A program made the position numbers and the translations under genes. Shown here in pieces: positions 6,501-40,899 of a stretch of 64,000 bases of DNA; positions within the stretch are counted from its first letter, which is position 1; each line of letters starts with the position of its first letter. Under the pieces are notes generated by a model, which was not told where the DNA came from, did not search any database, and saw only the letters and a list, made by a program, of their open reading frames with translations. Source of the stretch: Octopus vulgaris (Eukaryota); assembly GCA_951406725.2 (NCBI GenBank), contig OX597823.1, forward strand, positions 83,080,001 to 83,144,000. Reading direction: 5' to 3'.

Positions 6501-6914
6501 TATTTGTTTATTGCGTACAAGGGGTTAAACATAGAGGGGACAAACGAGGACAGACAAAGGGATTATGTCGATTACATCGACCCCAGTGCGTAACTGGTAC
6601 TTAATTTATCGACCCCGAAAGGATGAAAGGCAAAGTCGACCTCGGTTGAATTTGAACTCAGAACGTAAAGACAGATGAAATTCCTATTTCTTTACTACCC
6701 ACAAGGGGCTAAACACAGAGAGGACAAACAAGGACAGGCAAACGGATTAAATCGATTATATCGACCCCAGTGCGTAACTGCTACTTATTTAATCGACCCC
6801 GAAAGGATGAAAGGCAAAGTCGACCTCGGCGGAATTTGAACTTACAACGTAACGCAGACGAAATACCGCAAAGCATTTCGCCCAGCGTGCTAACGTTTCT
6901 GCCAGCTCACCGCC
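6501..6914 (-). mobile_element. SINE family A: one tRNA-like head plus two tandem bodies
   Basis: Head GGCGGTGAGCTGGCAGAAACGTTAGCACG, B-box-like GAGTTCAAATTCC, core GGTCGACTTTGCCTTTCATCCTTTCGGGGTCGAT. The second body has no head; the junction is at ~6683. Confidence 0.9.
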
Positions 6915-7546
6915 TTTCTATCTGTCTCTCTGTCTGCCTGCCTGTATGTTTGTCTGTCTTTCTGTCTGTCACATTTTCTTTCTGTTCGTAAAAAAATGCA
7001 TAATTCTACATTTTTGTATTTTTCTTCATTTCTTTCTCTCTCTCTCTCTCTCGCTCCCGTTCTCACTCTCTCTCTCTCACTCTTTCTCTCTTTCTATCTG
7101 TCTCTCTCTCTCTAGTTGTCTCTCGCGCTCTTCTCGTCTTATTCAGAATATAATTTATAGTTTGATCTTGTCACTTGTAAATAGGTTAATGAATTTACTG
7201 TTTATGTGTTTATGCTAATGCTGAACAAACATGCACAATATATATTTACAGATACGAACAGAGAACAAACACAGAACATCAAATAAATTCAAATGCAATT
7301 GTACAAAGTATGTTTTGAATCGCTTAAAAAAATTGTTTGCCATCTTTACTTTCATCACACACATAAGAAAGTGACCACCCAATCATACAAGCATACAGCC
7401 ATCTACATATAGAATTTCTTTCTCTCTCTCTCTCTCTCCCTCTCTCTCTCTCTCTTTCCCTCTCTTTCTCTCTCTCGCCCTCTCTCTCTCTCTATATATA
7501 TATATACATATATGTATGTATGTATATATATATATATATATCAACG

Positions 7547-7925
7547 TGGCATTCCGTCGGTTACGACGATGAGGGTTCCAGTTGATCCGATCAACAGAAC
7601 AGCCTGCTTGTGAAATTAACATGCAAGTGGCTGTGCACCCCACAGACACGTGTACCCTTAACATAGTTCTCGGGGAGATTCAGCGTGACACAGGGAGTGA
7701 CAAGGACGGCCCTTTGAAATACAGGTCCAACAGAAACAAGAAAAAAGGGTGAGAGAAAGTTGTGGTGAAAGAGTACAGCAGGGTTCGCCACCCCCACTCC
7801 CTGCTGGAGCCTCGTGGAACTTTAGGAATTTTCGTTCAATAAACACTCACAACGCCCGGTCTGGGAACCGAAACCGCGATCCTTAAACCACGAGTCTGCT
7901 GCCCTAACCACTGGACTATGCACCA
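7547..7925 (-). mobile_element. tRNA-headed SINE, head C + tail X
   Basis: Head CCAGTGGTTAGGGCAGC...GGTTTCGGTTCCCAGACCGGGCGTTG is shared with 15140 and 23691. Tail GTCACGCTGAATCTCCC...GTAACCGACGGAATGCC is shared with 47537. Confidence 0.88.
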
Positions 7926-8639
7926 CACACACACACACACACACACACACACACAAACAAATAAACACACACACACACATATAAATCTAAGGAACTACTG
8001 GTTCAATACGTAGTATTGCTGAGGAATGTCCTTGATACCTTAAGCACGTGCCTATTTTGATAAATGGCTAATCTATCACTATTACATTCATATATGCATG
8101 TTTATATGTATAGACCTATACACATATATACACACACATGCACACACGTGTATGTATATATATATATATGTATATATGCATGTATGAATGTATATATGTA
8201 TGTCTGTATGTATGTATGTATGCATGCATGCATGTATGTATGTATGTATGTATGTATGTATGTATGTATGTATGTATGTATGCGGATGAATGGATGGCTT
8301 CTCCGAGTTCGATGTATAGGTTATGTTGAACTCGATTAACTGACTGAGCCAGTCACTTAATAAAATTGTGAAAAGGTTTCATTTTCCATAGATACGTGGA
8401 AGCTGTATGTCATTTTCTAGTCGAATGAGCATAAATTCGTATGAAAGCTAGATTTTTTCCTACAGGTACCGTCCATTCGATGGACTCCTCCAGTTTCCGT
8501 TCACGCAGGTTCAGTTACAAGAGTTAGTTCGAACTGAGATTATGGTAATGGCACTTTGCTCATCGTGCCACCCAATGGTAATGGCACTTTGCTCACTATG
8601 CCAACTGGTGGTTGTGAAGAGAAAAGTCTTAACACGACG

Positions 8640-9020
8640 GCCATATTTGCATCGATATATGTTTCGGAGGGAGAAGTAATTAGCATTAAAATCAACCATT
8701 TTACAGGGAGCTAGCGGATGGCAAGTGTGAACAAAGTTGTACAGAAATAACGCGTCGAGAATGCGCGTAAAGCCTCACTGAAGAGCTTTGAGATCAGCTC
8801 TGATTCATGAGAAATGCAAGCACAAGACGGCTCTGCCTGGCGAAGCTACACCAACAGAAGTACCACCTCTTTGCCTTCAATCTCCAGAAGACCAACAGAG
8901 TCCGATCCTGCGGCAGAGGCTTTCGAGCACACATCGGACTGACTGGCAACAACCGAACATACTGTGCCCCGCCTTCTTCTCCCATGTGATGTTCTTTTTC
9001 ATCGACGACGATGTCGGATT
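8640..9020 (+). mobile_element. 3' end of an RTE-clade LINE (degenerate)
   Basis: Across frameshifts: ...ELADGK...KASLKSFEISSDS*EMQAQDGSAWRS..., then RSCGRGFRAHIGLTGNNRT (C2H2-like terminus) and a CATCGACGACGATG tail hairpin. Confidence 0.8.
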
Positions 9021-9682
9021 ACGTAAACTGTTCCAAATATTCGTCTCCTTAGATTTATTCAGAATTACAGCGCGATTTTTTCTCTGCTTTACCCAGAAAG
9101 ATACCTTATAAATGTTGGGTAACTTATTGTTCAGAATATAGAATTAAAAAGAAAATGTTTTACTATACAAGATAAACACGTAATCTAAGTTAAAAGGAAA
9201 AAAAAAAGAATTAATATTTGGTAAACAAATAACTAACTGATACGTGTAAGCAAAGACGCTTGTATGAATCTTTTACATAATAGCATTATAGATTCCAACG
9301 GCAAATTAAATCAACATATACAATGAAATGTATAAACGGATTCACAACACATTACTGCATCACATAGCATCAAATAAAAAAAATAAATATCACTATAAAA
9401 TCATCCTTACTCCCACTGAAGGTCTAGAAGAAGCATTTCGATATCTTGCCAAAATTAAACATGATTTCTCTGAGAAAAATGTCTTATGTATGTTTCGAAA
9501 AACGGTCTTAGAATAAATGTTGAAGTAAACAGCCTACGCAGTTGAATCTACAAAATAATATTTCATTAAGTAAAATATGGCCTCAGAGTAGAGGAAAAAA
9601 TAATTTTTCTTATGAATTTACTTTATTGCTGAAATCTTCATTTCGACTGTCACCTTTGGGTCGACTTTCTTGAATGTTGTTA

Positions 9683-38779: not shown

Positions 38780-39265
38780 ATTTGTGTGTGTGTGTTTTTG
38801 TATGCGTGTTTGTGTGTGTGTGTGTGTATGTGTGTGTGTGTGTATGTGTGTGTGTGAGTGCGTGCGTGTATGTGTGTGCGTGTGTGTGTGAGTGCTTGTC
38901 CCCACCACCCCTTGTTGTTGTTGTTGTTGTTGTTGTTAAGCAACAAGACGGGTAAAGGTGATTAGGTGATGGTCTAGGTCTTAGGGGCGGGAGACCCCAG
39001 ACCTTGGAAAAAAAAACCTTTGGTCGTCTTGTTGTAGTCGAGGGCTCTTCGTTGACGCCCGACACCACTGGGAGGTGGCCCTCGAAGTCGCTCGAAATGG
39101 TGATCTCCGGTTCCAAATTATTGAACGGCCCCAGCACCCCTTGACAAGCGGTGTCTTTTAGTATCCATCCCTGTATTGTAGCGGTTCAGCAAAAAGAGCC
39201 CGACAAATTAAGCAGCAGGCTTTGCATGGCCGCCGTCTAATGAATGAAACAGGTGGAGAGTAAAG
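38780..39265 (+). mobile_element. 3' part of a SINE family B copy, interrupted by an insertion
   Basis: TTGTCCCCACCACCCCTTG|ACAAGCGGTG...GCGGTTCAGCAAAAAGAG...GCATGGCCGC. Confidence 0.75.
38915..39128 (-). mobile_element. 5'-truncated retro-insertion with an (AAC)n tail and a 15-bp TSD
   Basis: CCCCA(C/G)CACCCCTTG at 38900-38914 and 39129-39143. GC-rich body; (TTG)n at the left end. Confidence 0.8.
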
Positions 39266-39799
39266 ACGCGCGCGCGCAAATACACACAAACACACACAAA
39301 CACACACACACACAAACACACACACACACACACACACACACACACACACACACACACACACACACACACACACACACACACCACAACCACAACAGAATGC
39401 AAACAGAAGTCACCAATACTTCAAAGCATCAAGCAATGCGTCCACATTTGTATCCCGCTGCTAGATTCAATATTTAATTACAGCTGGATTATTCACCATA
39501 GTTATCGTTAGGAACTATGAATACGTACAAGCTCTAATTGAATTTGTTTAAGTAATACCTGAATAATTAAAGATTTATTTCATCAGCTTTGCTAACCCTT
39601 ATACCCCCGCGAATTAACAGTGCTCGACCTTGAAGAATAGATGAGTTAAGCCCCTTTGATCAGCTTTGATCTGAGTTCTATTACGCGTGTGTGGTGTGTG
39701 ATTGCTATTGTGTGCCAAACCGTATCTTATTGCGGACAAAGGAGGGATTATCTTTGCAGACGGATCTCTCTCAAAGTTCCTTCTTTCATTTTCTTACTC

Positions 39800-40060
39800 A
39801 GGAATGCAATGAAAATTGTAGTTCTAGATACATATAACCGCAGCTATATAATATTCTCGGCGTGTGTGTGCCATTGGAAACCAGAAGTTACAGTTTTCGT
39901 ACGCAAAATGTGCCTTTATAGATGCATTGTGATAAGTAAAACAGTGTATACTCCAGAGCTGGGGATGGTGAAATCGCTCTGGAAGCAACCGCGAGAGCCA
40001 CAAGATACACATTTCGTCGTAACAGTGGCATGACAATATCACCTACTCGTGCCTCTTCCG
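39800..40060 (+). mobile_element. Possible mariner transposase N-terminal relic
   Basis: RSYIIF...KPEV...MCLY...VISKTVY weakly resembles the mariner HTH (R..I.F...I..E...VYG...S..TV..W). Confidence 0.3.
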
Positions 40061-40351
40061 AAACGAAGTCGAATAGCCCAGTTTGACGTATACAGAGACA
40101 GTTGAGATGCTTTTCATTATTCTTTTGATCTTCATAGATCAATTTAATGCTAACCAAATACAATATGGGAACCTCCACGCAGTTGTTGGACAGAGAAGAA
40201 ATAACAGCAAAATTTCACTGACACCTCCCTACTGTCTTAAAAACAAATAAGAAGGATACAAGGAATTTAAGAATTTCGCGATACACTATGTATGGAACTT
40301 TACTTATTTGGGGGCTGATTGACCAGAATAATCCTACGGTTATACAAAAAA

Positions 40352-40899
40352 TATTTTTTATTGCCCACAAGGGACCAAACATAGAGGGGACAAACAAGGA
40401 CAAACAAATGGATTAAGTCGAATATATCGACCCCAGTGCGCAACTGGTACTTAATTTATCGACCCCTAAAGAATGAAAGGCAAAGTCGACCTCGACGGAA
40501 TTTGAACTCAGAACGTAACGGCAGACGAAATACCTATTTCTTTACTATCCACAAGGGACTAAACATAGAGGGGACAGACAAGGACAGACAAACTGATTAA
40601 GTCGATTACATCAAACCGAAAGGATGAAAGGCAAAATCGACCTCGGCGAAATTTGAACTCAGAACGTAACGGCAGACGAAATACTTATTTCTTTACTACC
40701 CACAAGGGACTAAACACAGAGAGGACAGACAAAGGGATTAAATCGATTATATCAATCCCAGTGCGTAACTGGTACTTAATTTATCGACCCCGAAAGGTTG
40801 AAAGGCAAAGTCGACCTCGGCGGAACTTGAACTCAGAACGTAGCGGCAGACGAAATACGGCTATGCATTTCACCCGGTGTGCTAACGTTTCTGCCAGCT
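40352..40899 (-). mobile_element. SINE family A array: one head plus three bodies
   Basis: Junctions GACGAAATAC(C/T)|TATTTCTTTAC at ~40534 and ~40685. Confidence 0.92.

Follow-up and report, generated by a model that had tools for sequence, protein, structure and literature searches.

We analyzed 64,000 nt of Octopus vulgaris DNA (contig OX597823.1, positions 83,080,001 to 83,144,000; hereafter the window) and found that a short interspersed element (SINE), here called family A, forms arrays in which a single tRNA-like head is followed by two or three bodies. The arrangement of one head with headless bodies behind a fixed joint is real and reaches beyond the window. The young units of the arrays were probably added by retrotransposition to family copies already in place. 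As the mechanism we propose, tentatively and with slightly less than even confidence, that the young subfamily retrotransposes into its own family, aimed by its own RNA.

The family A unit is ∼230 nt long and consists of a tRNA-like head, a shared central body and a tail. The window, AT-rich animal DNA (GC content of 34.6%) with many microsatellites, holds ∼20 pieces of the family, and 19 units were aligned. Three tail types were distinguished, two old (O1 and O2) and one young (Y). The young tail comes in an internal-type variant, Y2, which ends in AGTAAAGAAATA, and a terminal-type variant, Y1, which reads AATAAA where the other young tails read AGTAAA or AGTGAA. Every tail type carries a 4-bp stem with a CTTGT loop, and the arms of the stem covary (GCCC/GGGY, AGGC/GCCT, and TGGC/GCCA). 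A covarying stem-loop would be expected for a recognition signal of a long interspersed element (LINE), and stem-loops of such kind have been described in stringent-type SINEs (PMC3747384).

An A-box pattern was found in three of the four array heads and the strict B-box pattern in none of the four; GTTCAAATTCC, judged by eye, is one mismatch off what we take to be the B-box consensus. ARAGORN detected no intact tRNA in the window. The unit is short, non-coding, dispersed and present in high copy number (∼230 nt, with 112,000–192,000 contigs matched per contig run). On the sequence features tested here, the element is classified as a tRNA-type SINE.

The four arrays lie within 35 kb. L1 (6501–6914, minus strand) reads head-Y2-Y1, L2 (17258–17793, minus strand) head-Y2-Y2-O2, L3 (28674–29238, plus strand) head-Y2-O1-O1, and L4 (40352–40899, minus strand) head-Y2-Y2'-Y1, with a head that is short by ∼7 nt. 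The original prediction, made from the letters of the window, had named these four loci, and each holds one head and two (L1) or three (L2–L4) bodies at the positions given, with the end of L3 at 29238. It was silent on the fact that L2 and L3 terminate in old-tail bodies, which bears on the mechanism. L1 and L4 show the same order, an internal-type tail followed by a terminal-type tail. Two of the four arrays are enclosed as a whole by direct repeats, of 11 bp at L2 and 13 bp at L3 (null comparison in Table 1); the upstream repeat of L3 adjoins the 5′ boundary of the family at 28672, where loose contig ends fall. The repeats around L1 (7 bp, inside a microsatellite) and L4 (5 bp) are not convincing as flanking duplications.

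Six of the eight young-type tails in the window precede a body, and the other two, both Y1, run into unrelated flanking DNA. All six enter the next body in one register, at GGTATTTCGTC with 0–2 mismatches, as had been predicted. This joint (J2) lies inside the head as claimed, at nucleotide 48 from the GGCGG start rather than at ∼45. This base opens the 3′ arm of an 11-bp hairpin in the head, directly after its 4-nt loop. The fixed joint is not due to chance, because an 11-mer like GGTATTTCGTC (0–2 mismatches) occurs at only 27 of 128,000 strand positions, SINE sites counted in, and a truncated neighbor could start at any of ∼230 positions. Neither a target-site duplication nor a second head was found at any of the six joints. 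An assembly artifact is unlikely since adjacent young bodies differ by 8–13% and the joint is also seen in three other organisms and in one raw read.

Old-tail copies had been predicted to occur only in head-bearing tandems. Two such tandems are present (Table 1), but in L3 the old-tail body L3b is followed by the headless old body L3c, to which it is identical at 131 of 177 columns. The L3b-L3c boundary (29067–29085) lies a few bases off the fixed register, and the 7 nt between the two bodies match the flanking direct repeat; a run similar to these 7 nt follows another O1 tail at 24.5 kb. The pair may stem from a local duplication long ago or from a previous round of self-insertion.

We compared four sequencing runs at L3 (28372–29500), one consisting of raw reads (organism A) and three of contigs (organisms C, D, and E). 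Contigs matching the region numbered 192,267 (C), 163,643 (D), and 111,879 (E). The raw run of organism A (X22) gave 11 matching reads from 1,934 million letters, and one of the 11 shows the tail returning to the body start. The L2 region is present in sequencing runs of five organisms. The joint counts that follow are contig counts, not locus counts, and come from the 15 listed of 1,795 joints. J2 accounts for 9 of the 15 rows, with 46, 41, and 7 contigs in C, D, and E, respectively. In one row it appears as a return to 28722 (9, 14, and 3 contigs), and in eight rows as a tail plus body start that continues on the second of the old reference bodies (37, 27, and 4 contigs). Old-type body starts after J2 were seen in the contig letters between the two sides of the joint.

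A second fixed joint (J1) leads from the tail end to head nucleotide 15 (window position 28688), inside the A box. It was found in two listed rows with 11, 17, and 25 contigs in C, D, and E (runs X7, X9, and X14). The window lacks J1, which outnumbers J2 among the listed joints of organism E (25 vs. 7 contigs). The two joints have a loose YTRGC|RG context in common and otherwise little sequence likeness. The remaining four rows reflect an internal variant or a change from one body copy to another. One joint in X14 runs from the tail through 24 extra letters into a complete head. Variation of the junction across the genome, named beforehand as evidence against the prediction, was thus found in part: there are at least two joints, and each of them is fixed among the 15 of 1,795 joints listed.

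Organism E is inferred to be the most distant relative from its sequence differences and its word share. In C and D, the Y2 tail marker made up 42–44% of the depth and the head variant of L3a 52–53%; the corresponding values in E were 8% and at most 2.1%. Contig depth does not equal copy number. The J2 share of young-tail depth was roughly 13–29% in C and D and 7–23% in E, as estimated from bin means. A single-copy-like contig of organism E holds the 3′ part of L3c (from 29123) with the downstream flank (29123–29411, 17 differences). Since this part of L3c is found in E, where the L3a head variant is nearly absent, the young unit of L3 is likely later than the old body. A contig of organism C covers the L3b-L3c boundary. 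The upstream flank of L3 has coverage holes in all three contig runs; its outer part (28372–28523) belongs to another repeat, with a depth of ∼5,000–95,000 that is highest in organism E. At 29390, 25 extra bases are present in organisms C and E and absent from the window and organism D.

The order of ages within the arrays also points to addition onto existing copies. Among the eight young bodies, identity was 89.0% for the 5 pairs that share a locus and likewise 89.0% for the 23 pairs from different loci; the closer likeness within an array that the original prediction had set down as a sign of local tandem duplication was not seen on average. The nearest neighbor lies at another locus (92–94%) for L1a, L2a, and L3a, the bodies next to the head in L1, L2, and L3, and also for L2b. 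An age gradient with the youngest body near the head, expected beforehand, was present in L1, L2, and L3, whereas L4 is flat. Identity to the majority sequence, which is dominated by Y2 bodies and flatters their figures, was 96.7% and then 89.7% outward from the head in L1. In L3 it was 94.0% to the young majority for the first body, then 79 and 81% over the shared body. The two young bodies of L2 reached 96.2% each; the O2 body that follows them is only 72–74% identical to other O2 copies. The bodies after the joint span several subfamilies, including old-tail ones that are ∼20% diverged (L2c and L3b). At head position 19, the young base A was found in all four array heads, those of the old-ended arrays included, and T was clearly in register in four of the seven old heads listed.

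Locus L2 contains an off-register joint. L2c starts with 18 nt of body that carry the young-type T at column 12 and then continues in an O2 body 45 nt onward, with an overlap of CTTT. At column 12, the upstream body L2b carries the old-type C. It has three private mutations, all within its first 41 nt, and columns 59–184 hold none (Fisher p = 0.03, post hoc). Such a structure would arise from an RNA that ended 18 nt past the tail and primed at a wrong CTTT of an O2 copy, with the complementary DNA (cDNA) rejoining the upstream part of the split O2 copy via homology. This swap is suggestive of an RNA-borne extension that split an old copy, in a single case.

In the RNA-guided self-insertion that we propose, a founder would have arisen when a tail became fused to nucleotide 48 of another copy, and RNA polymerase III starting from the single head would have read through into the next body. 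The protein of a partner LINE would bind the tail stem-loop. The RNA 3′ of the stem-loop would pair with the nicked strand of any family copy from nucleotide 48 and so be primed preferentially there, by analogy with R1Bm and SART1. The cDNA of tail, body and head would then anneal to the homologous upstream head or body of the target, by analogy with R2, a step that would leave no second head and no new target-site duplication. Each product would again be a head-driven array with the same read-through end, and in this way the joint would propagate itself. J1 was probably founded through AGAAA microhomology between a tail repeat and the head (nucleotide 15), and it prevails in another lineage.

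The steps borrowed from other elements have precedents. RNA-target pairing is needed for or aids priming in the I factor, R1Bm, and R2Ol (PMC6007223), and the addition of target sequence to SART1 raised accurate priming from 36 to 76% (PMC7265360). In R2, upstream homology of the cDNA gives precise 5′ joints, and a junction variant can self-propagate (PMC3774820).

Taken to its full extent, the proposal describes a self-homing SINE, which we regard as possible and with more doubt than RNA aiming as such. The 3′ end of the read-through RNA would serve as a built-in guide for target-primed reverse transcription by a LINE in a fixed register. Younger subfamilies would overwrite old heads and stack near the head in roughly chronological order, the system would have arisen twice, the guide register differing between lineages, and an exchange of the extension should redirect it.

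Several observations weigh against RNA-guided self-insertion. Neither the RNA 3′ end nor the partner LINE was observed, the LINE scan covering the window: no LINE adjoins the tail motif in the 64 kb, and a Pfam scan of 30 selected frames (of 167) in the window gave no reverse transcriptase. No empty orthologous site was found, and in no relative did a listed contig extend across L3. Both pairs of flanking repeats (13 bp and 11 bp) are perfect despite the old terminal bodies, which fits a recent single insertion somewhat better. The tree of the eight bodies has no supported fork, and local clades were not rejected (p-AU of 0.20, 0.23, and 0.49). The L4 bodies show identities of 93.7, 92.1, and 91.8% with no age gradient, and all three carry T at column 162, unlike the remaining five young bodies; the L4 pattern may include local duplication, conversion or a multimer source. 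The swap in L2 can also be read as a later 45-bp deletion plus CpG decay, and L2b may be a member of a different subfamily, one whose body is ancestral at columns 12, 78, and 111. L1b departs from the presumed extension at 2 of the first 9 bases after the joint, which would place the nick at or next to the joint. Finally, the position at the hairpin loop and the YTRGC|RG context favor some nuclease or structure preference.

The last two points lead to the first alternative, in which a target-specific LINE nuclease would nick family copies in the loop of the hairpin. The RNA would stop at the tail, and head homology would resolve the 5′ end. We think this unlikely. The joint is indeed the first base past the loop, the YTRGC|RG context is common to J1 and J2, and L1b carries target-derived differences within 3–9 nt of the joint. 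Target-specific pairs of a SINE and a LINE are known, and within a single target one Tx1 group makes use of two unlike sites (PMC4494074). Against a nuclease, the six joints lack both a duplication and a remnant of an old head, in contrast to tandem SINEU-3 with its sandwiched duplication (PMC4494074), the off-register joint of L2c bears 18 nt of body start, the J1/J2 ratio shifts among close relatives, and no LINE with the tail motif was found in the window. With their little likeness and a ratio that differs between organisms, the two joints are more readily accounted for by founders that arose independently than by a single nuclease. Given retrotransposition, we favor aiming by RNA over aiming by a nuclease, and the two can combine. 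The original prediction had offered a self-targeting SINE served by a sequence-specific LINE endonuclease as one of two origins. Its core is supported in that young units appear to be set onto existing copies in a fixed register with one clean head, as a homology-resolved 5′ end would give; the endonuclease is the weaker part, as the two joints of shifting ratio and the off-register joint of L2 fit RNA priming as well or better.

Spread at the DNA level is rather unlikely in our estimate. Here a founder fusion would be copied between loci by ectopic recombination or gene conversion through head and body homology, with no RNA step. Such copying accounts for the fixed joint, the single head, the mosaic bodies and the lack of a new duplication. 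The family is very large (112,000–192,000 contigs matched per run), and the L4 bodies share a private variant. Unequal recombination has been offered for similar arrays of a clam and of reptiles (PMC11481361; PMC10702118). In L3 and L2, however, the young-like tract ends ∼10–18 nt past the joint, in bodies that are ∼20% diverged, and the young unit is head-proximal in L1–L3. A stretch of ∼10–18 nt in bodies ∼20% diverged is little homology for recombination. The second abundant SINE-like family, at ∼10 places in the window, has formed no tandems.

A multimeric RNA was the other origin proposed by the original prediction, as a circular or template-jumping RNA, and we consider it quite improbable. 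Dimers or trimers would retrotranspose at once, from multimer masters, by template jumps to RNAs that had been cleaved in the loop of the hairpin, or from circles. The terminal units vary by locus (Y1, O2, O1, and Y1), and the terminal old body of L3 predates the split from organism E, where the head variant is nearly absent; circular or template-jumping RNA is a poor fit to two arrays that end in old, diverged bodies. No Rfam family reached its gathering score in the window, so no known ribozyme is present, and an undescribed ribozyme is possible. Retrozyme-type circular-RNA retroelements, which we take to be defined by a self-cleaving ribozyme in the unit, are not matched. What speaks for multimers are the perfect direct repeats that enclose the whole of L2 and L3, the same internal-then-terminal tail order in L1 and L4, the variant that the L4 units have in common, and the tail end GAAATA, which is the reverse complement of the TATTTC following the joint. 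True dimeric SINEs also exist (PMC10702118).

Independent local tandem duplications at a fragile hairpin (incipient SINE-derived satellites), to which the shared T at column 162 of L4, the 7-nt piece of the flanking repeat between L3b and L3c, and the unrejected local clades of the tree would lend themselves, are very improbable and largely refuted for L1–L3 by mixed tail types in one array, because duplication cannot set a young tail upstream of an old-tail body (L2 and L3), and in addition identity within loci equals that between loci and the same base is joined across loci and organisms.

We also examined folding and the wider occurrence of the sequence. The head variant of L3 and L4 alters both sides of the closing pair of the hairpin (U.G to G-C), which suggests that the hairpin matters. 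Compared with shuffled sequences, the L3 head alone folded better than most (4 of 200, against 36 of 200 for the L2 head). The RNA fold of the whole monomer was no better than shuffles (z of 0.44), nor were the tail windows. Runs of four T are rare in the young bodies of the window. A 25-nt motif of the central body (∼30 shared bases) was found in two unrelated metagenome contigs (L001, 80–104, and L002, 901–925), which share the central body and neither head nor tail. These matches hint at a widely conserved SINE domain, though they name no domain. The body pattern had no match in viral or prokaryote contigs, the tail pattern none in the viral, metagenome or prokaryote collections, and a plasmid search gave no match. 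Two other classes of element were considered and dropped: a long terminal repeat (LTR) element or terminal-repeat retrotransposon in miniature (TRIM), with the purine-rich tail end as primer tract, as there are no TG..CA ends, and a tiny DNA transposon with 6-bp inverted ends, as there are neither longer inverted ends nor a duplication per unit.

The features of the arrays and the copies used for comparison are listed in Table 1.

Table 1. Positions of array parts, flanking repeats and comparison copies in the window.
Feature	Position	Strand	Null comparison
tRNA-like L1 head with A box plus hairpin loop and 5′ arm	6868..6914	-	
L1a body with Y2 tail, joined to next body at fixed site	6685..6867	-	
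L1b headless body with Y1 (AATAAA) tail, runs into GATA microsatellite	6501..6684	-	
L2 upstream copy of 11-bp direct repeat (likely target-site duplication)	17795..17805	-	7 of 1,979 random pairs reach 11 bp
L2 head, young type	17747..17793	-	
L2 head hairpin, 11 bp, 4-nt loop; J2 is first base of 3′ arm	17736..17761	-	
L2a body with Y2 tail	17563..17746	-	
L2b headless body with Y2 tail; ancestral states at columns 12, 78, 111	17379..17562	-	
L2c: 18 nt of body start, 45-nt jump via CTTT microhomology, old body with O2 tail	17258..17378	-	
L2 downstream copy of 11-bp direct repeat, 16 nt past tail	17231..17241	-	
L3 upstream copy of 13-bp direct repeat (likely target-site duplication)	28659..28671	+	1 of 1,979 random pairs
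L3 head, young variant, compensatory G-C closing pair	28674..28720	+	
L3a body with young tail	28721..28905	+	
L3a 3′ stem-loop, CTTGT loop	28881..28893	+	
L3b headless old body with O1 tail; 79% to shared-body majority	28906..29066	+	
L3c headless old body with O1 tail; 81% to majority	29078..29238	+	
L3 downstream copy of 13-bp direct repeat	29243..29255	+	
L4 head, ∼7 nt short at 5′ end	40860..40899	-	
L4a body with Y2-type tail, 10-nt internal deletion	40686..40859	-	
L4b headless body (33-nt internal deletion) with internal-type tail	40535..40685	-	
L4c headless body with Y1 terminal-type tail	40352..40534	-	
Solitary old copy, O2 tail, (ATT)-rich site (comparison)	20444..20648	-	
Two old-tail copies, head-bearing tandem (comparison)	58815..59251	-	
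Two old-tail copies, head-bearing tandem (comparison)	60875..61298	-	

Among the old copies, the O2-tail copy at 59042–59251 has an 8-bp core repeat on either side and adjoins an older O1 copy at the latter's head. The upstream flank of the O2-tail copy and that of a copy at 57.8 kb are alike at 57 of 86 columns (59002–59290 and 57835–57930), suggesting an old duplication or a common upstream repeat. Other features of the window were also recorded. The second abundant SINE-like family, found at 27964–28300 and at about nine other places, contains an internal CA/TA microsatellite and forms no tandem or headless array. A 215-bp two-copy tandem with 90% identity (9683–10114) is unrelated to the SINE. 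On the minus strand, a 225-aa open frame at 13663–14340 carries a DDE_3 transposase domain (E = 1.4e-15) and represents a remnant of a Tc1-like DNA transposon. The plus-strand frame at 50362–50676 gave a weak Pfam match to PI3K_C2 (E = 0.0045, under the cut-off) and is possibly a host exon.

If self-insertion guided by RNA is true, a non-coding passenger element would have gained insertion specificity through RNA-DNA pairing alone, with no dedicated nuclease. An abundant SINE would thereby gain vast numbers of harmless landing sites in its own dead copies, which bears on its very high copy number. It would also provide a retrotransposition route from dispersed SINEs to SINE-derived tandem repeats, the origin of which is currently ascribed to unequal recombination. 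Ordered arrays would date subfamilies directly, and young units that overwrite old loci would distort repeat-age landscapes and SINE presence/absence markers in the lineage.

In the literature searched, to which most subscription papers and the Repbase and Dfam databases did not belong, there was no report of a SINE that targets a fixed position in members of its own family, and none of three exact motifs of the family had a match there; an earlier description may exist. From octopus, the tRNA-derived SINEs OK, OR1, and OR2 have been named (PMC4824008; PMC4758252). The available parts of two octopus repeat papers (PMC13282606 with its supplement and PMC12988792) make no mention of such arrays.

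In their layout, the arrays resemble the tandem SINE multimers of the blood clam Scapharca broughtonii, written TSD1-(SINE)n-TSD1 with TSD for target-site duplication, for which unequal recombination is indicated (PMC11481361). They too are built from a mollusc tRNA-SINE, with one complete head, head-truncated repeats and a duplication around the whole array. The internal units of the clam multimers also lack the 3′ tail, whereas here the full tail with its LINE-type stem-loop is kept, subfamilies of mixed age and tail type are combined, and one joint recurs across loci and organisms. The squamate satellites sSat1-3 (PMC10702118) resemble the arrays in that a fixed part of a SINE serves as the unit, the terminal unit is longer and unit ends are shared within a lineage; tandem units of a fixed SINE part with a longer terminal unit were found here as well. 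The sSats are subtelomeric and hold 4 to hundreds of homogeneous units. In contrast, the arrays here have 2–3 heterogeneous units with young upstream of old: where an sSat has at least four homogeneous middle units, we found at most three bodies with mixed tails and 89.0% identity both within and between loci.

Chains of dimeric and trimeric (Alu type) SINEs and the full-length Dip/B1 multimers (PMC10702118) are likewise head-to-tail, but they are of constant composition or made of full-length units. Here the composition varies by locus, with two or three bodies and terminal Y1, O2, O1, and Y1 tails, and the downstream units are headless.

Insertion at a fixed place within an abundant repeat, with serial insertions that give tandems, is known for SINEU-3/Tx1-Mar in Mariner-N4_AMi and for Tx1 in Tx1D (PMC4494074). 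As in those systems, copies lie at one site: all six internal-type tails enter the same joint, which is also found in three relatives. The target of SINEU-3 is an unrelated DNA transposon, a duplication is sandwiched between the units and the partner LINE is known, whereas the target here is the element's own family, the downstream units are headless, and a duplication is missing from all six joints. Mechanistically, the proposed likeness is to R1Bm, SART1, and R2 (PMC6007223; PMC7265360; PMC3774820), in which target sequence carried by the RNA aids priming and precise 5′ joints can propagate themselves. Those elements are autonomous LINEs with site-specific nucleases and ribosomal DNA or telomere targets, whereas the element described here is a non-coding SINE.

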